The notes under the pieces are model-generated. The model saw only the letters and a program-made list of their open reading frames with translations. It did not search any database and was not told where the DNA came from. From Thermoanaerobaculia bacterium (GTDB taxonomy: Bacteria; Acidobacteriota; Thermoanaerobaculia; Gp7-AA8), in assembly GCA_046594105.1 (NCBI GenBank), contig JBKJQB010000234.1, positions 1-63,150 on the forward strand: a stretch of DNA of 63,150 bases, in the 5' to 3' direction. The position numbers were made by a program, and so were the translations under genes. Of this stretch, positions 46,437 through 62,997 are shown in pieces. Position 1 is the first letter of the stretch. Every line of letters starts with the position of its first letter.

Positions 46437-46440
<4 letters not shown>
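45694..46440 (-). CDS. Hypothetical secreted protein
   Basis: Signal-peptide-like N-terminus, beta-rich; GTG start overlaps the hslU stop. Confidence 0.7.
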
Positions 46441-47840
<1,400 letters not shown>

Positions 47841-47853
47841 GATCAAAGGAGGC

Positions 47854-48393
47854 TCAAAGCGTTTCGACCGTGATGTGGTCGTTGGTGTAGATGCAGATCG
47901 ATGCGGCCACGCGAAGGGCTTCCCCTGCGATTTTGGCGGCGTCCATGTCGGTGTGCTGCAGCAATGCCCGCGCCGCCGCCAGTGCGTAAGGGCCGCCGGA
48001 GCCGATCGCCAGCAGGCCGTCGTCCGGCTGAATGAGGTCGCCCGTGCCGGAGATCAGGTAGGCACGCTCCGCATTGGCCACGATCAGGAACGCCTGGAGC
48101 TGGCGAAGGTATTTATCCATCCGCCAATCCTTCGCCAGTTCGACCACGGAGCGCTCCATGTTGCCCCGGTACTCCTCGAGCTTCGCCTCGAAGCGGGCAT
48201 ACAGCGCGAACGCATCGGCGGCACTTCCGGCAAACCCCGCAAGAATCTTGTCGTGGTAGAGCCGCCGGACTTTCGCCGCCCCATGCTTCATGACCGTGTT
48301 GCCTACCGTGACCTGACCGTCGCCGGCCATGGCCACGGCACCGTCGCGGCGGACACAGAGCACGGTGGTGGCGTGGATGGTGAGCGGTTCCAT
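47854..48393 (-). CDS. hslV: ATP-dependent protease peptidase subunit HslV
   Basis: HATTV propeptide site, GDGQVT, GFAG, IGSGG and CIYTN motifs. Confidence 0.97.
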
Positions 48394-48473
48394 GGCCGGC
48401 AGATCGTATCAAAGAGAGCGGGGACGCTCCGGTGCGGTTCGGTGAACGTCAGCGACCTGTACCGCTTCGTCAG

Positions 48474-49193
48474 TCACTTCCGATACGCGTCAAACTCGAG
48501 GGGTGGTGCGGCGACCAGTTCCCCGAGTGTCGCATGCTCCAGTTTCCAGGCGTGCAGCATCAGCCGCGGCGCCGGCGCGCCTCCGTACCGCCGATCGCCC
48601 ACGACCGCATGTTCGATCGACGCGAGATGGACGCGGATCTGATGCGTTCTGCCGGTCTCGATCTCCGCTTCGATCAAGCGGCCCCCGGCAGGGCGGATGC
48701 TGGTGATCGCGCTCCTGCCTCCGACCTCTGTATCGATGGTCAACGTCTCGCTGAGGGGACGATCGATGGCCGCGAGATAGGTCTTGCGCATCTGGCGGTT
48801 CGCGAATAGCTCGGAGAGCCGCGCGGCGGCGGACCGCGTCGTTGCGAACAGGACAATTCCGCTGGTGGGGGTGTCGATGCGGTGGACCAGGTAGATCTCT
48901 GGCGAGCGCAGGCGGAGCAGTTCCTCCATCGATCGCCGGGAACGATCGGCGGGAGGTTGCGTGGGCATGCCGGCTGGTTTGTTCACGGCAATCCAGTCGG
49001 AGGCCGAGGCGATGATTTCCACCGGCGGAAGGTCGTCATCGACGATTACGATCCGATCGGAATCAGCGGTGTGACGGGAGGCGATGGAGACCGGGCGGTC
49101 GTTGACCAGAATGCGCCGCGCAGCGATCAGCTCCCTGGCCTGGCGGCGGGAGATTTCCGGGAAGCGTGCGGCGATGGCCTGATCCAGTCGCAT
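48474..49193 (-). CDS. RluA/RluD family pseudouridine synthase with S4 domain
   Basis: MRLD, NKPAG, HRIDTPTSG, ETGRTHQIRVH and LHA motifs. Confidence 0.9.
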   Translation of the reverse strand: MRLDQAIAARFPEISRRQARELIAARRILVNDRPVSIASRHTADSDRIVIVDDDLPPVEIIASASDWIAVNKPAGMPTQPPADRSRRSMEELLRLRSPEIYLVHRIDTPTSGIVLFATTRSAAARLSELFANRQMRKTYLAAIDRPLSETLTIDTEVGGRSAITSIRPAGGRLIEAEIETGRTHQIRVHLASIEHAVVGDRRYGGAPAPRLMLHAWKLEHATLGELVAAPPLEFDAYRK

Positions 49194-49229
49194 AAAAAAA
49201 GAAGGACAGACGGGTCAGGTCTGTCCTTC
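49194..49229 (-). terminator. Intrinsic terminator of recA
   Basis: 11-bp stem GAAGGACAGAC/GTCTGTCCTTC followed by T7 on the minus strand. Confidence 0.85.
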
Positions 49230-49267
49230 GGAATCCTATCGCAGGCGACCAGGTCGCCGGATGGGGA

Positions 49268-50344
49268 TCAGCGAGCTGCCGCTTTGCTCACTTTGGCCAC
49301 CGCAGGCTCGGCGGCGCCCCCTTCGATCACTGTGAGCTCGGGAGGGCCGATGCCGAGGGCTTTGCGTACTCTGGCCTCGATCTCGGTAGCCAACTCGGGG
49401 TTCTCTTTGATGAAGAGCTTGGCATTCTCGCGGCCCTGCCCGAGACGCACGTCGCCGTAGGAGAACCAGGAGCCGGACTTCTCGATGATGCGGTGCTCGA
49501 TCCCGATGTCGACCAGTTCGCCCATCTTGGAGATGCCTTCGCCATAGCCGACATCGAACTCGGCGTAGCGGAATGGCGCGGCCACCTTGTTCTTGACGAC
49601 CTTGACCTTGACCCGCGATCCGATCACTTCCTCACCTTCCTTGATCTGGCCGGTGCGGCGGATGTCCAGGCGGACCGAGGAGTAGAACTTCAGGGCCCGG
49701 CCGCCGGTGGTGGTCTCCGGGCTGCCAAACATCACACCAATTTTCTCACGAATTTGGTTGATGAAAACCAGTGACGTTTTTGACTTCGCTAAAATGGCCG
49801 TCAATTTGCGCATGGCCTGAGACATCAGCCGGGCCTGCAGTCCGACGTGGCTGTCGCCCATCTCGCCTTCGAGTTCAGCGCGGGGAACCAGTGCGGCCAC
49901 AGAGTCGATCACGATGAGGTCGATGGCCCCTGAGCGGACCAGCACCTCGGCGATCTCCAGAGCCTGTTCGCCGCTGTCCGGCTGGGAGACCAGCAGGTTG
50001 TCGATGTCCACGCCAAGCTTCCTGGCGTATTCGGCATCCAGTGCATGCTCCGCGTCGATGAATGCCGCCAGGCCGCCCAGCTTCTGGGCCTCGGCGATGA
50101 TGTGCAGCGAGAGTGTGGTCTTTCCTGAGGATTCCGGCCCGAAGATCTCGATGATCCGGCCGCGGGGAATGCCGCCGACTCCCAGCGCCGCGTCGACGCC
50201 GATGGACCCGGTGGAGATGGCGCTGATCGGCACGAATTCCTTCGCGCCGAGCCGCATGATGGCCCCTTTTCCGAACTGACGCTCAATCTGCGTCAGTGCG
50301 GTTTCGCACGCTTTCAATTTGTCAGTGGGAACGCTGCTGCCCAT
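49268..50344 (-). CDS. recA: Recombinase RecA
   Basis: [16 protein letters not shown] and [12 protein letters not shown]. Upstream TTGACG-16-TAGACT promoter. Confidence 0.99.
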
Positions 50345-50595: not shown

Positions 50596-50791
50596 GAGTC
50601 CCGTAGGGACGATTGACCTTAGCCCAGGACTTCAGTCCTGGGTTTGATGCCCCTAAAAAGTGAGTCCCGTAGGGACGATTGAAAACGTCGCAACGAAGCA
50701 TCGTCAATCGTCCCTCCGGGACTCGTCTGGGGGAGCCCCTCAAGTCCCAGGACTGAAGTCCTGGGCTAAGGTCAATCGCGCCTCCGGCGCT
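50596..50791. repeat. BIME-like mosaic of REP-like palindromes
   Basis: GAGTCCCGTAGGGACGATTGA at 50596 and 50662, inverted at 50704. AGCCCAGGACTTCAGTCCTGGG near 50621, inverted near 50746. Confidence 0.85.
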
Positions 50792-51009: not shown

Positions 51010-52212
51010 TCACGACGTTGGCGAAAGTGCGATCGACGAACCGACCCAGGTGAACTGCTTGTTGAAGTCGACGCCGAGCATTTTCCCGCGGGAGAGGCGC
51101 ACCAGATTCTGAGCCAGGGTCATCGAGGTCGCGCCATCGGGTCGAAGGAACATCATGCGGATCTCGATCTTCACGCCGCCGCCATCCGCTGCTTCGAGAG
51201 CCGGCTCGTATTCGATCTTTTGCTGAACGCACCAGTTGCCGCGCTCCTTCTCCGGAATCGCTGCGAGATCCGCAGCAGTCGGCTCGATGTTCACGCCGCC
51301 GCCGGCGAAGGAGAACAGCGGCTTGAGGACGTAGCGGCGCGAGAAATCGTCCGGCACTCCCTGTAGATCCGAAACAAAAGTCGCCTTCGGCACAGAGGGG
51401 TGATCGAGAAAAGGGAGCGAGTACTTCGACCAGACCCAGTACCAGTTCGGATGCGGTGCCCATTCGACATCGAGGTCATCGCGGTAGTCGAACGGCAGCT
51501 TCGTGCCTTTGTTCGCCAGTTCGTCGAAGACCACTCGGTTGTAGATCCGCTTCACCGGTGTGCCATCGTCGCGAAACAACTGACGGCCGCGCCGGATCAG
51601 AGTCGTGGGATCGACGGCGTCGACATCGAAGAGGATCTTCGTCGCCGCAAAGTCGACATAGGTCTTCTGCTGCAGCGGGTCGAGGTCCATGAGAATCACC
51701 TCGCGCGGATCGTGATCGCCCACGATGGTACGGCGAGCCAGCTCGAGAAAGCCGCTGCGGTCCAGACCGGAGTACCAGCAGGACCATTCGAGATCGAGGC
51801 CCTCCATGGTGCGCATGGCGTCGCGCCAGACATCGCGTTGAACCACCTGCAGGCAGGTCAGCGAAGGGAAGCCCTGCAGCTCGATGAGCTTCGGAACGAG
51901 CACGCCGTTCTCGCGGACGACGGCGAAATCGACCTGGGCAAAGCTCGGCAGCGCGTCCATCCCCGGGGTGTTCCAGCGCTCGGGGATGGCCTGCTTCATT
52001 CGGGCGATGCGGTCGGGGTCGGAGATCTGGCGGACGATGGCGTTCGCCGCCTCGACGATCCGTTCCTTGAAAACATCTGGCAGGAAGAGCGGACTCTCCG
52101 CCAGCCGGAAGCCGAACCGGCAACCGAGCCGCCGCTCCAGTTCATCGGAGTACCACTGGAAACGTTCCGCCGTGATCTGCGCATTGAAGAGCCTGCGGTA
52201 ACGATCCTCCAT
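51010..52212 (-). CDS. Putative circularly permuted ATP-grasp ligase (glutathione/glutathionylspermidine synthase-like)
   Basis: QVDF...PKLIELQ precedes RIYNR and YVLKPLFSFAGGGV...QQKI, the motif order of permuted ATP-grasp enzymes. Confidence 0.65.
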   Translation of the reverse strand: MEDRYRRLFNAQITAERFQWYSDELERRLGCRFGFRLAESPLFLPDVFKERIVEAANAIVRQISDPDRIARMKQAIPERWNTPGMDALPSFAQVDFAVVRENGVLVPKLIELQGFPSLTCLQVVQRDVWRDAMRTMEGLDLEWSCWYSGLDRSGFLELARRTIVGDHDPREVILMDLDPLQQKTYVDFAATKILFDVDAVDPTTLIRRGRQLFRDDGTPVKRIYNRVVFDELANKGTKLPFDYRDDLDVEWAPHPNWYWVWSKYSLPFLDHPSVPKATFVSDLQGVPDDFSRRYVLKPLFSFAGGGVNIEPTAADLAAIPEKERGNWCVQQKIEYEPALEAADGGGVKIEIRMMFLRPDGATSMTLAQNLVRLSRGKMLGVDFNKQFTWVGSSIALSPTS

Positions 52213-52218
52213 GGGCGA

Positions 52219-53229
52219 TCAGGCCGGTTCCGCACCGACGCCGCAGCGATCGAGAACGACGCGCTCGATCTGACGCCGCAGCGGCTCGATCAGGGTGTAA
52301 TGAGAAGTCCGCTGACTCTCTCGCTCCGCCTCACCGTGGAACAGATTCTTCATCGTTGCGGCGCGCTCCCGGTACCAGTCTTCCGTGACCATGTCGTGGG
52401 CGCGCTTTTCCTCGAGCACCGCAAGGATGTGCTCTCGATCGATGATCTCGGGATGAAAGTTGACTCCAAGAATGCGAGGCGTGCCGTCGGGATGACGAGC
52501 CATCTCCATCATGGTCAGGGCGGAGCTGCCCACTTCTTCGAACGCCAGCACAGTGGCTCCCGCCAGGTTGTCTACGACGAGGTCGAATAGCCGGTTGTCG
52601 ACCACGCGGAAGTGCGTTCGATCGGGGAGCTCGGCAGCGAACGCCCGAAAGTACGGATGGGCTCTCGCTTCTTCGGAGAGAGCGTTCATGGGCATTCCGG
52701 AGCTCTTCACCTCTCGCAACTCGGGGTGGGCTGCGCCCGACCAGCGGCAGAGCAGCCCGAAGGAATGGCACACCGCCAGAAGGGTGGCCGTGGGATGGTC
52801 GTGAATGGCTTCGAAAAGGCGGAACAGCGGCGCTTCCCAGTCGGAGGTCTCCTCAATCCCCTGGCTCCACTCTCCGATGCCGTTATTGAAGCGCGGATCG
52901 AGATGGCCGGGACCGCCGGTCCCCAGGAACATCGGAAAGCGTTCGACCGAGGAGGGGAGGTTCGTGGTGCGGCGGATGTCGTAGGAGAGGACGCGTACCC
53001 GGAGGCCCGCCGCTTTCAGTTGAGCGCCGAGTGGCTCGGCCGCTTCGAGGACGACGTGAACCAGCCCATCGTGACCGAGGTTCGGCCAGGAATGATTCAT
53101 GTCCAGGAGAGCCACATCAATTCGATCGGCGCGCTCCGGAGGCTCGGCACCCTCGACGCGAACGTATTCGAAGAACTCGGATCCGTCGTGGATGTCGTGG
53201 TGCGCAGCGGGAGAATCAGACGACGCCAT
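52219..53229 (-). CDS. Class I glutamine amidotransferase-like protein
   Basis: GTGGPG oxyanion strand, AVCHSF nucleophile Cys and NFHPE His-x-Glu. Confidence 0.78.
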   Translation of the reverse strand: MASSDSPAAHHDIHDGSEFFEYVRVEGAEPPERADRIDVALLDMNHSWPNLGHDGLVHVVLEAAEPLGAQLKAAGLRVRVLSYDIRRTTNLPSSVERFPMFLGTGGPGHLDPRFNNGIGEWSQGIEETSDWEAPLFRLFEAIHDHPTATLLAVCHSFGLLCRWSGAAHPELREVKSSGMPMNALSEEARAHPYFRAFAAELPDRTHFRVVDNRLFDLVVDNLAGATVLAFEEVGSSALTMMEMARHPDGTPRILGVNFHPEIIDREHILAVLEEKRAHDMVTEDWYRERAATMKNLFHGEAERESQRTSHYTLIEPLRRQIERVVLDRCGVGAEPA

Positions 53230-54325
53230 GCTCGGTCTCGCGGATGATGTAGTCGACGACGTCATTCAGGTCCTGACGATGTTCATAGGCGGCCAGCTGA
53301 CGGTCGGCGCCGGTCCCTCGCTTCAGGATCTCTTTGACGTAGTGGACCTCGTCGCGCGACCCCAGCTCATCCACGACGTCATCGACGAAGAGCAGCAGCT
53401 CGTCGAGCAACTCAGTGAAGGGCACCTCGGCGCGCTTGCCGAAGTCGATCAGCTTGCCGCCGATGCCGAAGCGCGCGGCCCGCTGTTTGTTCTCGTTGAG
53501 CAGCGAGCGCCGATAGAGGCGCCAGCCCATGTTCTGGCGATACAACTTGTGCAACTTCACGGTGATGGCCTGGAACAGAGCGGCGAAACAGATGGTCTCG
53601 TCGACGCGCATCGGCACATCGCAGATCCGATACTCCAGCGTCGGGAAGAATGGATGCGGCCGGACGTCCCACCAGATCTTCTTCGGGTTGTCGATGCAGT
53701 TGGTGGCGATGAGGGTGTTGACGTATTCGTCGTAGTCGCCGGAGGTCCGGAAATTGTCGGGAAGGCCGGTGCGGGGAAAGCGCTCGAAGACCTTGGCCCT
53801 GTAACTTTTCCAGCCGGTGTTCTTGCCGCACCAGAACGGTGAGTTGACGGAGAGGGCAAAGACGTGCGGCAGGAAGTAGCGCGCCGCATTCATGATCTGG
53901 ATGCGCGTCTCGTGGTCTTCCACCGCCACGTGAACGTGCAGGCCGAACACCAGGTTCGCGCGCGCCAGCATCTGCATTTCGTAGACGAGCTGATCGTAGC
54001 GGGCGTTCTCGGTCATCTGCACGTTCGCCCAGTGCGTGATCGGGTGCGAGCCTGCCGCGCCGATCCGCAGTCCGTTGGCATGCACGAGTTGAATGATCTC
54101 CCGGCGCAACCGGGTGACCTCCACGCGCGCTTCGGCGATGTTCCGGCAGATCGGCGTGCCCACCTCGATCACCGGATCGTGCATCTCCCGTTTGATCTCT
54201 TCCTTCAGCCGCTTCTCACCCTCGGCGAACATCTCCTGGATGTGCGAGCGGAGCTGCCGCGTCTCAGGATCGATGACCTGAAATTCTTCCTCGATGCCGA
54301 GAGTGAATGAAGGTTGAGAGGCCAT
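53216..54325 (-). CDS. Carboxylate-amine ligase, YbdK/GCS2 family
   Basis: FTLGIEEEFQ, FGLHVHV, NSPFW, IWWDVRP, TLEYRICD and ENKQRAARFG motifs. Confidence 0.93.
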   Translation of the reverse strand: MASQPSFTLGIEEEFQVIDPETRQLRSHIQEMFAEGEKRLKEEIKREMHDPVIEVGTPICRNIAEARVEVTRLRREIIQLVHANGLRIGAAGSHPITHWANVQMTENARYDQLVYEMQMLARANLVFGLHVHVAVEDHETRIQIMNAARYFLPHVFALSVNSPFWCGKNTGWKSYRAKVFERFPRTGLPDNFRTSGDYDEYVNTLIATNCIDNPKKIWWDVRPHPFFPTLEYRICDVPMRVDETICFAALFQAITVKLHKLYRQNMGWRLYRRSLLNENKQRAARFGIGGKLIDFGKRAEVPFTELLDELLLFVDDVVDELGSRDEVHYVKEILKRGTGADRQLAAYEHRQDLNDVVDYIIRETEHGVV

Positions 54326-54357
54326 GCCGAAAGCATAACCCAGCACATCGGGTGCGG

Positions 54358-55353
54358 TCAGCGCGCCGTTTTCGGGGCGCCTTTCGACCCGGTGACGAGG
54401 GGTTCACCCGCAGCCTTTGCAGTATTCATGACCGAGGGCCAGTTGCCGGTGAGCTCGAGGGGCTTTCCCGACAGGACGATCTCGATCAGCGTCTCCGCCA
54501 TGTTCTGGACGACCCACTTGAAGTTTTCCTCTCCCACGGAGGCTCGATCGGCGTCGGGAGCACAGTTCATGAAGTCGATGGCGTAGGGGATGCCGCCGCG
54601 CACGGCAAACTCGACCGTATTCATGTCGTAGCCGAGGGCCTCGCAGAGGGCGGAGGCGTCGCGACGGATCTTCGCCTCGAAGGCTGGCTCCATCGGAGCG
54701 GGATCCTGCACGTAACGCTGATCGTGAGGCAGCCGCGGGTCGTACTGCATGATGTGGACGCGGTTGCGGCCGATGACGTAGCAGCGGTAGTAGGCGTCGA
54801 AGTCGATGGCCTCCTGCGCCATCATGGTCAGGTCGCGCGACTGGTCGTAGGCAGAAAAGAACTCGTTGCGATCGTCGCACTTGTAGACGTCCTTCCAGCC
54901 ACCGCCGTACGCCGGCTTCATGAAGATGGGGAAGCCGAGGTACTCGAAGACCTCGTCCCAGTTCACCCATTGCATGTTGCGGAAGGACTGGGAGGTTGTG
55001 TTGGGCGGGTACTCCTTGTGGGGAAGCAGGACGGTTTTCGGAACCGCGACGTCGACCGACTTGGCCACCAGGTTGTCGAAGAACTTGTCGTCGGCCGACC
55101 ACCAGATGGGGTTGTTGACGATCTTCACGCCGGAGGCAGCGGCGCACTTGAGCATGGTGCGGTAGAAGGGGATCTCGTGGCTGATGCGATCGAGGATCAG
55201 GTCGTAGCCGAAGACGCCGTCATCCTTGAGGTAGGAGATCTCCACCGCGCTGGCCTCGACTTTGCCGCTGCCCCGCTTGTTGATCTCCTCGATCAACGCC
55301 CAGGGAAAGGTGTTCTCCATCCCGAACAGCAGTCCAATCTTTTTCGTGGTCAT
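54358..55353 (-). CDS. RimK-like ATP-grasp ligase
   Basis: DDKF, VPKT, FPIFMKPAYGGG, QEAI and VEF...IDFMN motifs. Confidence 0.85.
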   Translation of the reverse strand: MTTKKIGLLFGMENTFPWALIEEINKRGSGKVEASAVEISYLKDDGVFGYDLILDRISHEIPFYRTMLKCAAASGVKIVNNPIWWSADDKFFDNLVAKSVDVAVPKTVLLPHKEYPPNTTSQSFRNMQWVNWDEVFEYLGFPIFMKPAYGGGWKDVYKCDDRNEFFSAYDQSRDLTMMAQEAIDFDAYYRCYVIGRNRVHIMQYDPRLPHDQRYVQDPAPMEPAFEAKIRRDASALCEALGYDMNTVEFAVRGGIPYAIDFMNCAPDADRASVGEENFKWVVQNMAETLIEIVLSGKPLELTGNWPSVMNTAKAAGEPLVTGSKGAPKTAR

Positions 55354-55414
55354 GGCGATCTCCAGGGGGGCGGATCGTAATCAAAAACGCGGCCTGGCGG
55401 CAATGAGAGTCTGG

Positions 55415-55596
55415 CGTGTGGTGCGGCCGTCCCGGCCGCCTCGCGGGGGTCGAGGCTGGGCCGGCACGGCCGGCGGCGCTGGTTGCCCAAGGCTCCGCCA
55501 AGATCACGCTCCAAGACGTTCTGCCGCGCAGGCTCCTAGGAGGCCGTCCTTCGCGACCGGGACCCAGTCTGCGGCCGGGGACGGCCGCGCCACACG
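55415..55596. repeat. Inverted REP-like doublet enclosing type A repeat copy 2 (55459-55539)
   Basis: CGTGTGGTGCGGCCGTCCCGGCCGC (55415-55439) and an inverted copy (55571-55596). Confidence 0.8.
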
Positions 55597-55769
55597 GCCG
55601 CTCAAGGAAGGGTGATCAGCGAGATCGCGAGGGCCTTCTCGGGCATTTTGTTACGCAGACCTTGTTAGGATCGCAACTCGCAGTTGCGGGAGCTAGAGGA
55701 TGCTTCGCCGTATTCGCGGCGCAGAATGGCGAAAGCGGACGGCGCATTCGCCGTGAGGGAGTCACCAAC

Positions 55770-56477
55770 ATGTACCGCGAAAACGTTCAGTGGCACAGCC
55801 CCTCCCTCGGTCGCACGATGGAGTTTCTCTGGTTCGGCAAGTTCGGCCGGCCGGTGATTCTCTTTCCCACTTCCGGCGGCGGTTTCAATGAAAACGAGGA
55901 TTTTCACCTGACGGGAGCGCTGTCAGACAAGGTGGAGCGCGGGGAGATCCAGCTGGTCTGCGTCGATTCCGTCGATCAGGAGAGCTGGTACAACCGCTCG
56001 GTCCATCCGGCCGTGCGGGTCGCGCGGCACGCTCAGTACGACGCGTACCTGCGGCACGAGCTGGTTCCCTACGCCGTGAATCGCTCTCAACGGGAGGACC
56101 TCGCTGTGTACGGAGCGAGCTTCGGCGCCTACCACGCGGCCAATTTCGCCGCGCGCTATCCCGACGTCGTGCGCCGCGCCATCTGTTTCTCCGGCGTTTA
56201 TGACGTCCACTCGTTTCTCGACGGCTACTGGGATGAGAACTGCTACTTCCACTGCCCAGTGGCCTACATCCCGAACCTCGACGCCGAGGGTGCGCGACGG
56301 GTGGCCAGTGTGGAGTGGGTCATCGCCACGGGCGAATACGACTCGCTGGTGCAGCAGAACCGCGACTTCTCCTCCATGCTGAGCGGGAAAGGGATTCCCA
56401 ATCACGCGGAGTTCTGGGGCGGCGTCTTCGGCCACGACTGGCCCTGGTGGCGTGAGCACATCCGGCGCTTGGTGTGA
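55770..56477 (+). CDS. Esterase family alpha/beta hydrolase
   Basis: SPSLGRTM, FPTSGG, GASFG nucleophile elbow, FSGVYD and GHDWPWW. ATG at 55770 follows GGAG. Confidence 0.88.
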   Translation: MYRENVQWHSPSLGRTMEFLWFGKFGRPVILFPTSGGGFNENEDFHLTGALSDKVERGEIQLVCVDSVDQESWYNRSVHPAVRVARHAQYDAYLRHELVPYAVNRSQREDLAVYGASFGAYHAANFAARYPDVVRRAICFSGVYDVHSFLDGYWDENCYFHCPVAYIPNLDAEGARRVASVEWVIATGEYDSLVQQNRDFSSMLSGKGIPNHAEFWGGVFGHDWPWWREHIRRLV

Positions 56478-56562: not shown

Positions 56563-57543
56563 TCAGCGAGTGGAGTGGGAGGACGACTTGGCCACCCAGC
56601 TGCGGAAAGTCTCGCCGGAGACGGTTCCGGAGACGGTCACTGAGTCGTCGCTGCGCGAGACGCTGAACTTGCGAAGCACGGAGACGAGATCCGGCGATTT
56701 GTCCTGAACGGCAAGCCGCAGGGCCGACAGACCGCCGCGGATGGTGTCCTCAAGAAGGCCGAGGGTCTCGGTATCGCGGGAGAGGCCGATGGCGGACAGC
56801 TTGAGCGAGTCGCCGGAGTCAGTGGCCCACAGCGCGACGGTGGACATGCTCTTGAGCGCGCCGCCGATCATCTGCGCGGACGATCCGTGATCGCCCATGT
56901 GAGGCGCGCCGGCGAGGCGCTGAGCGCGCGCGACATCGACCAGGACCCACGCCGTGGCGCGAGGATCGATCCGTGCCTGATCGCGACCGAGGCCACTGGC
57001 AGTGCTGAAGCCGGTGCCGCCGGAAGCGCGATTTGCCAGCGCCTCGAGCACAGCCCCTTCGGAACCGAGAACTGCGAGATGCGAATCGGGGAAGGCCACG
57101 ACCATGGGGCCACGATCATGACTGTTGTCGCTGTGTGGAATGAGCAGGTAGGAACCATTCGGCGAAGACTTGCGCGTGGCGCCACGGGTTACCAGAGCGC
57201 TGGAGAGACGCTCGACGTTGAAGCGGCCGTCGGCAGCAATGAGGATGTCCGCCTCGCCGCCGAGGGTGGTGCGCGGTGAGGTGGTGAACACGATCACGTC
57301 GACGTCGCGGGTCGGCTGTAGTCCGGAGTCGCGCAGGAACTTCACCGCGTCGTCATCCATGCTGACGTGCGCCGTCTGCTGAAAGAGAGCGGACGAAAGC
57401 GGGCTGTTGCGCATGTCGGCCAGCCGGACCACCCCGACCGACACCGCGTCGCTGGGGATCAGCGACATTGCGTCATTCTTGGCGAATGCCGCGGGAGCGA
57501 TTGCCAGGATCAGGGCCACAAGGGAAAGCAGGTGCTTCTTCAT
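56563..57543 (-). CDS. Hypothetical exported protein
   Basis: AGGAG RBS and signal peptide ending AFA; 1 nt after the permease stop. Confidence 0.75.
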   Translation of the reverse strand: MKKHLLSLVALILAIAPAAFAKNDAMSLIPSDAVSVGVVRLADMRNSPLSSALFQQTAHVSMDDDAVKFLRDSGLQPTRDVDVIVFTTSPRTTLGGEADILIAADGRFNVERLSSALVTRGATRKSSPNGSYLLIPHSDNSHDRGPMVVAFPDSHLAVLGSEGAVLEALANRASGGTGFSTASGLGRDQARIDPRATAWVLVDVARAQRLAGAPHMGDHGSSAQMIGGALKSMSTVALWATDSGDSLKLSAIGLSRDTETLGLLEDTIRGGLSALRLAVQDKSPDLVSVLRKFSVSRSDDSVTVSGTVSGETFRSWVAKSSSHSTR

Positions 57544-57544
57544 G

Positions 57545-58396
57545 TCAAAACTCCTTTCGTTGGAAAAGCCAGGAAGCGAGAGCGAGGCAGGCGACGCCAA
57601 AGGCCGCGGTCGATAGAAAGGGCGCCCAGCTGAGAGAAGCCGCGATCCTGGCGGGGGCCTGATTGCCCGACACGAAGGCGATGACTGCTCCACCCAGCTC
57701 GGCGGTCTTGGGAACGATCCAGTACAACGTGTTGATCACCCAGGCCTGCCACTCCTTCGAGACGGCGGCCGCGATGCGATCGTGGCCCACCAGCATCAGT
57801 GCGAAGAAGAAGAGACCGTACGTGGACATGATGGAGACACCGGTGGACGAGGTGATCACGCCGACCAGAAACGCAAATGCCATCAGGGTGGCGATGACGA
57901 ACAGGATCACGCCGCCTGCAAAGAAGAAACGCGGATGGACCACGTGCGTCTTCCAGATCACGATCAGCCAGATCGATCCGATCAGGTAGAGCACGTTGCT
58001 GCCGGCCAGAATCAGCCCGGCGACGTACCGGGAAAGGATCAGCTTCAGCCGCGACACCGGCCGGGAGAGATAGAGGTCGATCGTCCCTTTCTCCTGCATG
58101 CGCGGCACGAGGTGCGCCGTGGCGAACACCGCCAGGAAGGTGCAGAGGAAGTAGAGAACTGCGGAGAACCCCGACTCGAATCCAAGGACCAGCTTCTCGA
58201 TGGAGATGGCCTGGTTCATCTCCACGTTCTTCCCGAACAGTCTGGCGCTGGCCAGCGAGCCATCGACGATGTCGAGATTGATCGCTGAGGCGAAGATGAG
58301 AACGAAGATCGAGGAGAGGCAGAAGTAGGCGATCAGCGTCCAGCGCGCTGCAGCCTCACGCATCACGTCTTCGATGTTGGCGATGAGAGCCTTCAT
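57545..58396 (-). CDS. ABC transporter permease
   Basis: EKGTIDLYLSRPVSR motif and about six TM segments. Confidence 0.88.
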   Translation of the reverse strand: MKALIANIEDVMREAAARWTLIAYFCLSSIFVLIFASAINLDIVDGSLASARLFGKNVEMNQAISIEKLVLGFESGFSAVLYFLCTFLAVFATAHLVPRMQEKGTIDLYLSRPVSRLKLILSRYVAGLILAGSNVLYLIGSIWLIVIWKTHVVHPRFFFAGGVILFVIATLMAFAFLVGVITSSTGVSIMSTYGLFFFALMLVGHDRIAAAVSKEWQAWVINTLYWIVPKTAELGGAVIAFVSGNQAPARIAASLSWAPFLSTAAFGVACLALASWLFQRKEF

Positions 58397-59346
58397 AGCT
58401 GCACCTTCATTTGATGGACTTCCGGAGCGCGGATCAGATCGACGAACACATCTTCGAGCGAGGAACGGATGGGAGCGAGCTCGGTGATCAGTCCCCCCGA
58501 AGCGCGCAGCCGATCGACCAGTGCGTTGAGGTGCTGGACTCCCTCGACCGAAAGAACCACGTGCCCGTTGACTCGCTCGGCCCCCGCGCCGGTCTCCCGG
58601 AACGCTGCGAGCAGGGCGTCGTCGACGGGGGAAGCCACCAGTTTGTAACTCGATGTCGGGCGGGTGAGCTCTTCCACCGATCCGCCGACGGCGACCTTTC
58701 CCCGGCGTAGAACCGCCACACGGTCGCAGGTGAGCTCGATCTCGGACAACAGGTGGGAGTTGAGCAGGACCGCGGTCCCCCCCCTCGCTTCTTCGCGGAG
58801 CAGATCGCGGATCTCCCGTCTTCCCACCGGATCGACTCCATCGGTCGGCTCATCCAGCAGGAGCACTTCGGGGGAGTGCACCAGGGCTGCAGCAAGCCCC
58901 AGTCGCTGCGTCATGCCCTTGGAAAACTTCTTGACCCGCACGTCCATCCATTGCGACAGCCCGACCCGCTCCAGCAGAAGGCCGGTGCGCTGAACGATCT
59001 CTTTCGACTCCATCCCCGACATGCGCCCGAAGATGGACAGCGTCTGGCGAGCGGTCAGGTAACCAGGAATGCGATGCCCCTCGGGAAGGTAGCCCACCCG
59101 GCGCCGGCTCTCCGGATCGTGAACGCTGCGGCCGCCAATCCGGGCGTCGCCGGAAGTTGCCCGGGTGAGGTCGAGCAGGATCTTGACCGTGGTGGTTTTC
59201 CCCGCTCCATTAGGACCGAGCAGCCCGAACATTTCGCCTGGCTCCACGGTGAAGTCGATACCGTCGAGGGCAGTGATCGGAGCCTTCCCCATGGAGGATC
59301 GGTAGGTCTTCCGGAGAGCAGACACTTCGATTGCGTGTGGACTCAT
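58393..59346 (-). CDS. ABC transporter ATP-binding protein
   Basis: GPNGAGKTT, FSKGM, LDEPTDGVDP and SHLLSE motifs. Confidence 0.93.
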   Translation of the reverse strand: MSPHAIEVSALRKTYRSSMGKAPITALDGIDFTVEPGEMFGLLGPNGAGKTTTVKILLDLTRATSGDARIGGRSVHDPESRRRVGYLPEGHRIPGYLTARQTLSIFGRMSGMESKEIVQRTGLLLERVGLSQWMDVRVKKFSKGMTQRLGLAAALVHSPEVLLLDEPTDGVDPVGRREIRDLLREEARGGTAVLLNSHLLSEIELTCDRVAVLRRGKVAVGGSVEELTRPTSSYKLVASPVDDALLAAFRETGAGAERVNGHVVLSVEGVQHLNALVDRLRASGGLITELAPIRSSLEDVFVDLIRAPEVHQMKVQL

Positions 59347-59454: not shown

Positions 59455-62400
59455 ATGACCGACCGAGCCGTGTTTTTCGACCCCAGCCGCCGGCGATGGT
59501 GGTGGATCAAACGCATCGTGACGCTGCTGGGTCTGGCATCCGTGGCCACGATCAGCGTGTGGTTGATCAGCCTCTTCACCGCTCCGTTGCTTCCGGGGAT
59601 TCTCGGCCTGACCACTCCGATCAGCCGCAGCCTTCAACGCAGCCTTCATTTCTCCCGGCATCAGACGGAGTTGCAGCAGTTCAAACTCAAGAAGGATCGC
59701 GACCGCCTGTTCTCGGAGATTGCGAAAGATCGCCAGCAGAAACAGGCGCGGGCGGCACTTCCTCCGGTGAGCGGAGCGACCGGGATCGTCGCGGCGTTCT
59801 ATGCACCCTGGCAGGAGACGGGGCTGCATTCGCTGCGCGCCAACGCGTCACGGATGACGCACATCCTCCCCGCCTGGGTCCACCTTTCCGAGGATGCCCG
59901 CAGCCTCGATTTTCATGACTGGGATCCCGTCCTGACGCCCCACAACAACGACGTTCTGGAAGTTGCCCACACGAACAATCTGAACATCGTGCCGGTATTC
60001 AGCAACGCGCAGGTCTCCTCGAGTGGATCGGGAGAGTTCGATCCGAAACGCGTCCATCTCTTCCTTTCGGACCCTGTCCTTCAGGAGGCCATCATCCTGG
60101 AGCTCCGGAAGTGGATCCTGACGAATCGGTTTCAGGGCATCAACATCGATTTCGAAAACCTGGAGGATGCGGACTATGCACTGATGATTCCCTTTCTTCA
60201 GCGGATCAAGAGGGCGTTCGCGCCGAACCTGCTGGTAAGCATCGATCTGGAGGCCGACAAACCGCTCGACTGGAAGCTGGCCTCATCGATCTGCGACTTC
60301 GTGGTGATCATGGCCTACGACGAACACTCCCAGAACGATGCGCAGCCGGGCCCCATCGCCTCCATCAACTGGTATCGCGGGGTGGTGCAGCGCGCGTTGC
60401 GCAGCCAGATTCCCCGCGAGAAACTGGTGGTGGGCCTGGCGAACTACGCCTACGACTGGACCGTAGGAAAGGATGGAGCCGACCCGCTGACGTATCAGGG
60501 AGCTCTGCTGCTGGCTCAAAAATACCGGATCGATGCGCGAGAGCCTGGAGCTTTGCCTGAGAAAGCGGAAGACGTCATCGACTTCGACAGCAACTTTCTC
60601 AACCCCACCTTCTGGTATGTCGATGACGAGGGCAAAGACCACGAAGTGTGGATGCTCGATGCGGTGACGGCGGCGAATCAATGGCTGGTCGCCTCCAACT
60701 ATGGCGTTCGGGGAGTGGCCATCTGGGTGCTGGGATCCAGCGATCCATCCATCTGGACGTTCATTCATCGCGATCGCCTCAACGAGCCGCCGAACATGGG
60801 AGTGCTGCGCGACGTGAACTTTCCGTACGAAGTGGAGTTCGTGGGAGAAGGGGAAGTGGCCCACGTGGAGGCCTTGCCGACCAAAGGCTCGCGATCGCTG
60901 GAAGTCGATCCCAGCACCGGTCTGGCCGTCGACGAGAGCTACCATCAATTCCCTACCTCCTTCGTGATCTCCCGCAGCGGGTACCGGCCGAAGATGCTGG
61001 CCCTGACCATCGATGACGGCCCGGCAGAGCCCTACACGGCGCAGATGCTCGATGTGCTGAAGCAGGAGAAAGTCACCGCCACCTTCTTTCTGATCGGCCA
61101 GAACGCGGAGCGGTATCCGCAGCTGGTCAAGCGGATCTGGAGGGAGGGCCATGAGATCGGCAATCACAGTTACACCCACCCGAACATCGGAGCGATTCCA
61201 CTGACTCAGGCGCGACTGGAGCTGAACGCCACGCAGCGGGTGTTCCAGAGCCTGCTGCATCGTTCCACCCTCCTGTTCCGCCCCCCCTACAACGCGGATG
61301 CCGAGCCGACATCGGAAGAAGAAGTACGCCCGGTGGTCCTGGCTTCCAGCCTCAACTACATCACCATCCTGGAGTTTCTCGATCCTCAGGACTGGAACAC
61401 CGAAGAGCGAGGCCCGGATGGTCGCATCCATCACCGGACCGCTGCCGAGATGCTCCGGACGGTGGAGATGCAACTCGACTCCGAGCGGGGAAGCTGCGTT
61501 CTTCTGCACGACGGAGGAGGCAACCGCGCCGAGACGGTGAAGCTGATCCCTCTGATGGTGCGCACGCTGCGCGCGAAGGGCTACACCTTCGTCCCGGTAT
61601 CGGCCCTGATCAATTCGACGCGCGACCTGGTCAATCCGCCGGTCACCAAGTCCGACACCATGATGCTGGCGAACGATCGCGTGGTGTTCGAAGGCATCTA
61701 CCTCTTCGAGCTCTTTCTCAGTGTGGCTTTCGTCTCCGCCATCATTCTGGGAACGGCGCGCGTTGTGTTCGTGACGATTCTTGCTCTCGTCGCGCGCTGG
61801 CGGGAAAAGCGCGCGACGTTTGACGAGACCTACTCTCCCGCTCTGAGTGTGGTCATCGCCGCATTCAACGAGTCCAAGGTGGTGGTGCGAACCATCCAGT
61901 CCGTCCTGGACAACCACTATCCCGACCTCCAGATCATCGTGGTCGACGACGGTTCCACCGATGACACCAGCGAGCAGGTCCAGCAAGCCTTTGCCGGTCA
62001 TTCCTCCGTACGGTTGCTGCGTCAGGAAAACGGCGGGAAGGCCTCCGCCCTCAATCGGGGCATCGCCGCGACCACCGGCGACATCATCATCGCGCTGGAC
62101 GCCGATACCGTCTTCGGGCGCGACACAATCTCCAGACTGGTCCGGCACTTCGCCGATCCGCGCGTCGGCGCAGTGGCTGGCAACGTCAAGGTAGGCAACC
62201 GGATCAATCCGCTCACGCATTGGCAGTCGATCGAGTACGTGACCAGCCAGAACCTCGATCGTCGGGCCTACGCCGCCATCAACTCGGTCACCGTCGTTCC
62301 CGGCGCAGTCGGTGCCTGGCGTCGGGAGGCCATCCTTCAGGCCGGCGGCTACACCACCGACACCATGGCCGAAGACATGGACCTGACCTGGCGAATCCGC

Positions 62401-62997
62401 AGGATCGGGTGGCGGATCGATACCGAGTCCTCAGCGTTCGCGTACACGGAGGTGCCGGATCGTTTCGGCTCCCTGTTCAGGCAACGCTTTCGATGGGCGT
62501 TCGGCACTCTGCAGTGCCTGTGGAAACATCGCCGTGCCATCGGGCGCTACGGGTGGTTCGGGCGGGTGATGCTGCCAGCCCTGTGGCTTTTCCAGATCGT
62601 GTTCCAGGTGCTTTCGCCGTTGGTCGACCTGCAGATCCTCTGGGCGATCATCGGTGCCCTCCATGCATGGCTGCGAGGGCAGCTCACCCACGACTGGCAG
62701 CCGTTGCCGCAGGCGATGACTTCCCTCTATCTGATCGGGTTCATGTACGCGTTCTTCTTTGTGGTGGAGCTGATCGGGTCGCTGGTGGCATTCCGGCTCG
62801 ATCGAGAAGATCCCAAGGTTCTGGTCTGGCTCTTCTGGCAGAGATTCCTCTATCGGCAGCTGATGTACGCAGTGCTCCTCAAGTCGGTGAAGACCGCGGC
62901 ATCCGGCATCCGGACCGGGTGGGGAAAGCTCGAGAGGAAAGGCACGGTGGACTTCGGCGAACGCCCCGAGCTTCCCGCCACCGGACTGCAGCCGTAA
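59455..62997 (+). CDS. Tri-domain GH18-like / polysaccharide deacetylase / GT2 glycosyltransferase
   Basis: GINIDFE and MAYDEH (GH18-like); TIDDGP, HSYTHP, RPPY, LLHD (CE4); DDGS, DADT, AED, QRFRW (processive GT2) plus TM helices. Confidence 0.9.
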   Translation: MTDRAVFFDPSRRRWWWIKRIVTLLGLASVATISVWLISLFTAPLLPGILGLTTPISRSLQRSLHFSRHQTELQQFKLKKDRDRLFSEIAKDRQQKQARAALPPVSGATGIVAAFYAPWQETGLHSLRANASRMTHILPAWVHLSEDARSLDFHDWDPVLTPHNNDVLEVAHTNNLNIVPVFSNAQVSSSGSGEFDPKRVHLFLSDPVLQEAIILELRKWILTNRFQGINIDFENLEDADYALMIPFLQRIKRAFAPNLLVSIDLEADKPLDWKLASSICDFVVIMAYDEHSQNDAQPGPIASINWYRGVVQRALRSQIPREKLVVGLANYAYDWTVGKDGADPLTYQGALLLAQKYRIDAREPGALPEKAEDVIDFDSNFLNPTFWYVDDEGKDHEVWMLDAVTAANQWLVASNYGVRGVAIWVLGSSDPSIWTFIHRDRLNEPPNMGVLRDVNFPYEVEFVGEGEVAHVEALPTKGSRSLEVDPSTGLAVDESYHQFPTSFVISRSGYRPKMLALTIDDGPAEPYTAQMLDVLKQEKVTATFFLIGQNAERYPQLVKRIWREGHEIGNHSYTHPNIGAIPLTQARLELNATQRVFQSLLHRSTLLFRPPYNADAEPTSEEEVRPVVLASSLNYITILEFLDPQDWNTEERGPDGRIHHRTAAEMLRTVEMQLDSERGSCVLLHDGGGNRAETVKLIPLMVRTLRAKGYTFVPVSALINSTRDLVNPPVTKSDTMMLANDRVVFEGIYLFELFLSVAFVSAIILGTARVVFVTILALVARWREKRATFDETYSPALSVVIAAFNESKVVVRTIQSVLDNHYPDLQIIVVDDGSTDDTSEQVQQAFAGHSSVRLLRQENGGKASALNRGIAATTGDIIIALDADTVFGRDTISRLVRHFADPRVGAVAGNVKVGNRINPLTHWQSIEYVTSQNLDRRAYAAINSVTVVPGAVGAWRREAILQAGGYTTDTMAEDMDLTWRIRRIGWRIDTESSAFAYTEVPDRFGSLFRQRFRWAFGTLQCLWKHRRAIGRYGWFGRVMLPALWLFQIVFQVLSPLVDLQILWAIIGALHAWLRGQLTHDWQPLPQAMTSLYLIGFMYAFFFVVELIGSLVAFRLDREDPKVLVWLFWQRFLYRQLMYAVLLKSVKTAASGIRTGWGKLERKGTVDFGERPELPATGLQP

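Follow-up and report, generated by a model that had tools for sequence, protein, structure and literature searches.

What a compact group of ligase and hydrolase genes builds, and what it cleaves, is the question raised by one locus of a Thermoanaerobaculia bacterium (Acidobacteriota; assembly GCA_046594105.1, contig JBKJQB010000234.1). The window, i.e. the whole analysed stretch of 63,150 nucleotides (nt), contains at positions 51010-56477 four co-directional minus-strand genes, denoted here G1 to G4, and one divergent plus-strand gene, E. All five had been reported in a preliminary description made from the sequence, and all are found at the same positions in the list of open reading frames (ORFs). 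Our analysis has shown that the set combines two hydrolases (G3 and E) with three ATP-dependent carboxylate-amine ligases, each of a different architecture (G1, G2 and G4), and that these genes are kept together across phyla. We consider it somewhat probable that the five genes form a cassette for the non-ribosomal synthesis and turnover of a small peptide. By analogy with characterised relatives, the product is probably a small glutamate-containing peptide that is built and trimmed. The ribosome-independent pathway for a gamma-glutamyl-type peptide, proposed in the preliminary description, is partly supported and is still the best reading, as far as the chemistry of the families can tell.

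Conservation of the gene set

Genomes were scanned with a G4 profile, one genome per species, and 80 of the 584 confirmed loci were kept, with their ORFs compared by phmmer. G2 is found in 50 of these loci, G1 in 47, E in 45 and G3 in 26, while aminopeptidases of the M29 and M61 families are present in 21 and two loci, respectively. The loci come from Acidobacteriota, Eremiobacterota, Gemmatimonadota, Planctomycetota, Myxococcota, Bacteroidota and Ignavibacteria/Chlorobi-type genomes, that is, from at least seven phyla. Full sets were counted in the 64 loci where the sequence upstream of G4 extends for 7 kb or more. All five gene types, namely E, G1, G2, either G3 or M29, and G4, are present in 38 of them (21 with G3 and 17 with M29), and 11 more contain partial sets. 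One of the 21 sets with G3 (L089) is atypical, as it qualifies only via a second, inverted G2-G1-G3 set located just downstream of G4. The genes are 40-80% identical and adjacent across phyla, and their association is far beyond chance. The preliminary description had suggested co-occurrence elsewhere as a check of its reading, and the genes do co-occur.

Among 201 sampled Acidobacteriota genomes (tallies include the unpublished G152 and G024), G4 is found in 27 (G000 included) and G1 in 62 (E-value up to 1e-30), and all G4-positive genomes also hold G1 (27/27). Of the 26 other G4 loci, 20 were examined, the excluded ones being the unpublished G152 and G024 together with G095, G141, G010 and G011. 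In these 20 loci tblastn (E-value up to 1e-5) identified G2 in 14, G1 in 14 (in one of these cut by the locus edge), E in 11 and G3 in three, with G4 standing alone in six. Clustering of flanking ORFs for further conserved partners gave lineage-specific neighbors only, and was confounded by overlapping spurious ORFs in this GC-rich DNA.

The ligases

G2 is a clear case. It matches PF04107 with E-value 5.3e-57 (193.8 bits, cut-off 21) over model positions 1-288 of 291, and it scores 515 bits against NF010039, "carboxylate-amine ligase" (cut-off 371). Thus, the YbdK/GCS2 ligase of the preliminary description stands, and G2 is clearly predicted to be a GCS2/YbdK-type carboxylate-amine ligase, the only PF04107 match in its genome. 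Like YbdK, the E. coli prototype of GCS2, it matches PF04107 and NCBIfam models of the YbdK family, but its best model is NF010039 and not the one named for YbdK, NF010040, where it reaches 219 bits, below the 425-bit cut-off.

G1 as a single sequence has weak matches only. The best families are RimK and LysX in NCBIfam and R2K_2 in Pfam (E-value 3e-6 for the RimK family TIGR00768 and 0.005 for R2K_2), and the score against TIGR00768, 26.8 bits, is far from the cut-off of 143.4, so that G1 does not belong to the RimK alpha-L-glutamate ligases. A profile of 34 G1 sequences (alignment A3) matches biotin carboxylase 3ouu (3.1e-6) and D-Ala-D-Ala ligase 3r23 (5.3e-6) at positions 129-274, which form the ATP-grasp core. 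In the same alignment the KPxxGGGW loop (K146, G150-152) and the DFxN motif (D260, N263) are invariant, and G1 is labelled ATP-grasp in the Atlas. Since the profile matches cover the ATP-grasp core, G1 is predicted to be a classical ATP-grasp ligase that resembles RimK only loosely and is not a strict member of the RimK family. Of the RimK-like ATP-grasp described previously, the ATP-grasp part is therefore retained, while membership in the RimK family is not.

G3 and G4 are named "hypothetical protein" in the sequence sources. Single-sequence searches with either protein against Pfam, NCBIfam and PDB sequences (for G4, with Pfam E-values up to 0.01) gave no match, and hence structure models of both were built. 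The AlphaFold2 (AF2) model of G4 has pLDDT 95. It was obtained from an alignment of 53 sequences (A1), derived from a library search with 1043 relatives at E-value up to 0.001. Its best full-length matches are E. coli YjfC and YgiC (VIA Z-scores 26.3 and 26.2), followed by the synthetase domain of glutathionylspermidine synthetase (GspS; VIA Z 24.1) and, again at full length, the human, yeast and soybean (homo)glutathione synthetases (VIA Z 23.5-24.1). Further matches are the uncharacterised permuted ATP-grasp protein 3n6x (Z 22.8) and the E-64 ligase Cp1B (Z 22.2). The group of permuted ATP-grasp proteins thus has VIA Z-scores of 20-26 to G4, compared to at most 12 for the next chains. In A1 the invariant E111-x-Q113 precedes the invariant VLKP...GGG loop (K297, G304, G306), and the G4 profile aligns the VLKP...G loop to YgiC at 5.5e-4.

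Given the full-length structural matches and the E-x-Q motif preceding the Lys loop, the permuted ATP-grasp suggested for G4 previously is confirmed at the level of the model, the predicted fold being that of GspS and the eukaryotic glutathione synthetases. The ATP-grasp nature of 51010-52212, on which the preliminary description had made its reading depend, is upheld by profile comparison as well, in which hhalign relates A1 to an alignment of four PF14403-positive proteins (A5) with 95.3% probability and E-value 2.3e-8 over 319 columns. Hence, judging by profiles, G4 is homologous to circularly permuted ATP-grasp proteins of the PF14403 type, while the Pfam model of PF14403 itself gives no match to G4 at E-values up to 0.01.

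The characterised proteins closest to G4 differ in what they would imply for its role. YgiC, YjfC and GspS (7uk8, 7uk6, 2io7) are the best full-length matches, with 331-345 aligned residues and a root-mean-square deviation of 3.2-3.9, but their identity to G4 is only 10-14%, and G4 has no PF03738 match. The available text of PMC12568646 presents YgiC and YjfC as peptide-spermidine ligases, or peptidylpolyamine synthetases, which join a peptide carboxylate to a polyamine. The eukaryotic (homo)glutathione synthetases (2hgs, 1m0w, 3kal) share the permuted ATP-grasp fold of G4 over 366-376 residues and extend a gamma-glutamyl dipeptide, which would suit a GCS2 partner; their identity to G4 is 11-14%, and no match at the sequence level was found. 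As to gene context, YgiC, YjfC and GspS of E. coli are not known to lie in GCS2/esterase operons.

In two cases a transporter is joined to a G4 homolog. The library representative P0249 (870 amino acids, aa) is a fusion of a sodium:solute symporter (PF00474) with a G4 homolog, and in a Chlorobi-type genome a symporter ORF runs into a G4 homolog (L126:6548-9182). Unless they are gene-calling artefacts, these joins hint at a possible substrate of G4 that is taken up or exported by the cell.

The hydrolase slot between G2 and G4

The position between G2 and G4 is occupied by G3 in Thermoanaerobaculia and Eremiobacterota, by a shorter, PF00117-positive glutamine amidotransferase (GATase) in Bacteroidota (270-280 aa) and Ignavibacteria, and in Terriglobales, Gemmatimonadota and others by an M29 aminopeptidase (PF02073; ten ORFs read, three of them tested against Pfam). 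In two Myxococcota loci (L089, L091) it is occupied by a PF05299 M61 aminopeptidase. The gene order in this last variant is E, G1, M61 peptidase, ATP-grasp_4, G4, with no GCS2 gene in line and an ATP-grasp_4 ligase in its place. In total, M29 or M61 is found in the slot of 23 of the 80 loci, and five loci lack any slot gene. On a quick maximum-likelihood tree of G4 (80 rows, i.e. the window and 79 loci, one locus with fewer than 330 aligned residues being dropped) the G3/M29 label changes at least three times. As unrelated exopeptidases replace G3 repeatedly, the simplest role for the slot enzyme is hydrolytic removal of an N-terminal residue, which in the case of a C26-type enzyme would be a gamma-glutamyl group.

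The AF2 model of G3, obtained from 32 sequences (A2), has pLDDT 93. The best Foldseek match is Arabidopsis gamma-glutamyl peptidase 1 (GGP1; 6.5e-11), followed by DnfC, SMU.1228c and MsGATase. VIA Z-scores are 18.4-19.7 for stand-alone GATases and GGP1; PuuD and SpuA reach 16.4-16.6, and true amidotransferase domains 16-17.4 (17.4 for CarA, 16-17 for TrpG/PabA), so that the fold comparison taken alone would not separate a hydrolase from an amidotransferase. C154, H155, H259 and E261 (numbering of the 336-aa form) are invariant in the 32 sequences. In agreement with the class I GATase-like protein with a Cys/His/Glu triad noted in the preliminary description, the modelled fold of G3 is that of class I glutamine amidotransferases and C26 peptidases. 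The fold and the triad are shared with the gamma-glutamyl hydrolases GGP1 (9k7k), PuuD (6vtv) and SpuA (7d50); unlike them, G3 has no Pfam match and carries an additional C-terminal extension of three helices (approximately residues 265-328). This extension has no counterpart in the 270-280-aa forms from Bacteroidota, which, unlike G3 of the window, do match PF00117.

The reading of G3 as an amidotransferase-like enzyme holds for its fold, while its activity is more likely that of a hydrolase than that of an ammonia supplier, since the best structural matches are stand-alone gamma-glutamyl peptidases and M29 and M61 aminopeptidases fill the same slot. Prediction of a G2-G3 complex, with each protein given its own alignment (A6 and A2), scored 0.00 in both runs and is uninformative either way. 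Unlinked G3 paralogs from other Acidobacteriota (L038-L056) have an N-terminal Cys-rich extension, MPxxC...G...C...C, that is absent from G3 of the window.

The esterase

E matches PF00756 with E-value 6.5e-11 (42.9 bits, cut-off 22), and a profile of 33 E sequences matches the esterase 5vol at 1.5e-14. Residues G116, S118 and G120 of the GxSxG motif and H223 are invariant. The divergent Ser esterase of the preliminary description is borne out by these matches, and E is predicted to be a Ser-His esterase of the PF00756 family. We consider it an integral member of the unit, because the blocks of Terriglobales and Bacteroidota begin with E in the same orientation as the other genes.

Proposed pathway and alternatives

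In the proposed pathway, as the chemistry of their families suggests, G2 would join a glutamate-type gamma-carboxylate to an amine, and G1 would add a further residue or make the acceptor. G4 would convert the C-terminal carboxylate of the nascent peptide into an acyl phosphate and link it to an amino acid or a polyamine, a step modelled on glutathione synthetase and the peptide-spermidine ligases YgiC and YjfC. The slot enzyme (G3 here, M29 or M61 elsewhere) would strip an N-terminal (gamma-)glutamyl or aminoacyl residue, and E would cleave an ester, a thioester or a C-terminal bond. Together these steps would constitute a build-and-recycle cycle for a small soluble metabolite. According to the available text of PMC4431377, linked ATP-grasp and COOH-NH2 ligases often perform successive peptide ligations. 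In a more specific version, the metabolite would be a new low-molecular-weight compound widespread in soil bacteria, namely a gamma-glutamyl peptide to which G4 attaches a C-terminal amine or polyamine cap, as in glutathionylspermidine. It would have its own recycling enzymes, with no fewer than three replacements of the N-terminal exopeptidase among the unrelated C26, M29 and M61 types. This version is tentative, and we regard it as rather unlikely.

Several observations weigh against a dedicated peptide cassette. The product, the substrate and the order of the steps are putative, and each chemical step is extrapolated from distant relatives (10-18% identity). The closest solved relatives of E are carbohydrate and feruloyl-type esterases, which fit a pure peptide poorly. 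Moreover, 15 of the 64 loci with sufficient upstream sequence contain G4 without any of the other genes, and 35 of the sampled Acidobacteriota genomes have G1 but no G4 match; hence, the five genes are not an obligate unit. The loci with G4 alone have no neighbor in common, the neighbors being LysR and YceG in Blastocatellia, and an AI-2E transporter and SRAP in Holophagales. In four of the five checked genomes with an isolated G4, G1 and G2 are adjacent elsewhere in the genome, and in G040 they are accompanied by G3.

The same enzymes could be read in other ways. If G3 supplied ammonia, the locus would perform glutamine-dependent amidation, with ammonia channelled to G2 or G4 and a peptide amide as the product, similar to NAGGN synthesis or MurT/GatD. 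The class I GATase triad of G3 is complete, and its Z-scores to amidotransferase domains nearly equal those to hydrolases. G2 and G3 are adjacent or overlapping, and this adjacency is kept where G4 lies elsewhere (as in G040); GCS2 enzymes are glutamine-synthetase-like ligases. Still, G2 and G4 appear to work without G3 in the loci where the slot is filled by M29 or M61 or is empty, and the best Foldseek matches of G3 are stand-alone gamma-glutamyl peptidases, which makes amidation clearly unlikely in our view. Modification of a protein or a ribosomal peptide, i.e. a reversible tag resembling those of RimK, LysX/LysW or pupylation, would agree with the pairing of ligases and hydrolases, reminiscent of writer/eraser systems, and with the weak matches of G1 to RimK, LysX and R2K_2, families whose members modify proteins or are predicted to do so in the available text of PMC4431377. 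However, the E-G1 gaps in five close relatives are 28-134 nt and internal gaps are mostly shorter than 200 nt, which leaves no room for a conserved precursor gene. No carrier-protein gene has been seen in the blocks, ORFs below 80 aa in the window not having been searched systematically, and small molecules are the substrates of every solved G4 relative with Z above 20. Reversible protein tagging, the other possibility raised in the preliminary description, is thus less likely than it appeared there, and we assign it a low probability.

A plain (homo)glutathione pathway would consist of G2 as gamma-glutamylcysteine ligase, G4 as a eukaryote-type synthetase and G3 as a gamma-glutamyl peptidase for turnover. 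It would explain the full-length similarity of G4 to human, yeast and plant (homo)glutathione synthetases and the presence of a single GCS2 protein in the genome, in which, at 94.75% completeness, no bacterial-type GshB (PF02955) was found. On the other hand, two ligases suffice for glutathione, while here a third ligase and an esterase are conserved alongside, so that something more elaborate than a glutathione-like tripeptide is the likelier product. Moreover, the similarity of G4 to peptide-polyamine ligases is just as high (Z 26), and at the sequence level G4 has no match to glutathione synthetases. The genome also encodes a BshC-family protein, which presumably points to bacillithiol as its thiol. 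Taken together, this makes plain glutathione very unlikely. We consider about as improbable a catabolic or salvage route of the Puu type, in which an amine or peptide taken up by the cell would receive a gamma-glutamyl group and, after processing, be set free, instead of being synthesised as a product in its own right. The similarity of G3 to the gamma-glutamyl-amine hydrolases PuuD and SpuA and the symporters joined to G4 in P0249 and L126 are in its favor, but three ATP-consuming ligases would be costly for catabolism, and the blocks have neither an oxidase nor a dehydrogenase among their conserved genes. Besides, the known routes of this type use glutamine-synthetase-like ligases rather than GCS2 with two ATP-grasp enzymes.

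Relation to known neighborhoods

The block is a variant of a neighborhood already predicted by comparative genomics rather than a new category. Iyer, Abhiman, Burroughs and Aravind (Mol Biosyst 2009), as well as the Pfam entry PF14403, reportedly describe the association of a permuted ATP-grasp protein, GCS2, an alpha/beta-hydrolase and an amidohydrolase or peptidase, with a predicted role in small-peptide synthesis. The same gene types are adjacent here and in the 38 full loci. Twelve G1 loci from genomes without G4 provide a direct comparison: in four of them (L150, L152, L153, L154) a PF14403 (CP_ATPgrasp_2) protein adjoins G1, with GCS2 also present in L150, L152 and L154, and M29, M48 or E in L152, L153 and L154. 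As G4 is homologous to this protein by hhalign and the latter stands beside G1 where G4 is lacking, G4 may be considered a shorter relative, not detected by Pfam, that replaces the PF14403 ligase. The differences are that G4 is approximately 60-80 aa shorter than the PF14403 proteins and has no Pfam match, and that it is located at the 3' end after the hydrolase slot, whereas the PF14403 protein is located between G1 and G2. Furthermore, the Pfam text is said to mention a GAT-II-like amidohydrolase and an M20 peptidase, whereas the block studied here contains a class I GATase fold or M29/M61.

No characterised product of such a block was found in the literature searched, most subscription journals being outside its coverage. 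A paper on a thiohistidine dipeptide (PMC13674229) was considered as a precedent and rejected, as YbdK appears only among its references and no such cluster is described. With G4 in 27 and G1 in 62 of the 201 Acidobacteriota genomes, the genes occur in a sizeable share of soil lineages, and also in Bacteroidota, Gemmatimonadota, Eremiobacterota and others. Three ligases should yield a defined compound resembling a tri- or tetrapeptide, and its identification would bring a new common metabolite into bacterial physiology, be it a thiol, an osmolyte or a polyamine conjugate, and give functions to two families missed by domain libraries, G4 and the acidobacterial form of G3. Complete blocks are present in cultured strains of Pedobacter (L135), Mucilaginibacter (L128) and Hymenobacter (L131), which makes the question directly testable.

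Gene boundaries and spacing

The coordinates are listed in Table 1. The spacing of 32, -14 and 6 nt between the minus-strand genes, given in the preliminary description, is reproduced with G2 starting from the ATG at 54325 and G3 from 53229. With the longest ORFs instead, the gap between G1 and G2 is 11 nt and G2 and G3 overlap by 50 nt. The longest ORF of G3 (52219-53265) encodes 348 aa, while the database entry P0121 has 336 aa, starting from 53229. The longest ORF of E is 55416-56477 on the plus strand, but its homologs are 234-237 aa long and their alignment to E begins at the ATG of position 55767, which is therefore most likely the true start.

The region between E and G1 presumably contains the promoters. 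No Rfam family, riboswitches included, reaches the gathering score there, and promoter and terminator scans of this region gave nothing above chance level. It contains one inverted repeat of 19 nt (55415-55433 / 55578-55596).

Table 1. Positions of the five genes and of their predicted functional residues in the window.
Feature	Position	Strand	Description
E	55767..56477	+	PF00756 "putative esterase" family alpha/beta-hydrolase (predicted), 236 aa
E catalytic codons	Ser118 = 56118-56120; His223 = 56433-56435	+	
E-G1 divergent intergenic region	55354..55766		413 nt
G1	54358..55353	-	predicted classical ATP-grasp ligase, 331 aa, distantly RimK/LysX-like
G2	53216..54346	-	predicted GCS2/YbdK-type carboxylate-amine ligase, 376 aa from GTG, 369 aa from ATG 54325
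G3	52219..53229	-	predicted class I glutamine-amidotransferase-fold protein, 336 aa
G3 catalytic codons	Cys154 = 52768-52770; His259 = 52453-52455; Glu261 = 52447-52449	-	
G4	51010..52212	-	predicted divergent circularly permuted ATP-grasp ligase, 400 aa
G4 motif codons	E111-x-Q113 = 51874-51882; K297 = 51322-51324	-	

Other features of the window

On the other side of E, the minus strand at 56563-59346 encodes an ABC-2 permease, an ABC ATPase and, immediately downstream of these two, a 376-aa protein with no Pfam match; a homolog of this last protein is kept near the cassette in L013. The plus-strand ORF at 59455-62997 encodes a single 1180-aa protein in which a GH18-like domain is joined to a polysaccharide deacetylase and a glycosyltransferase of family 2; it looks like an all-in-one synthase and modifier of an exopolysaccharide.

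Downstream of the cassette, at 46437-50344 on the minus strand, there are genes resembling hslU, hslV, a pseudouridine synthase gene and recA (named from their translations). In three genomes of the same family recA is found 3-5 kb from G4. The 665-nt spacer between G4 and recA contains two Acido-Lenti-1 RNA motifs (RF01687), at 50597-50642 on the minus strand and 50746-50791 on the plus strand, which score 55.9 and 54.5 bits, respectively, against a gathering score of 37. They form a 42-nt inverted pair, and shorter repeats of the Acido-Lenti-1 unit are located nearby.

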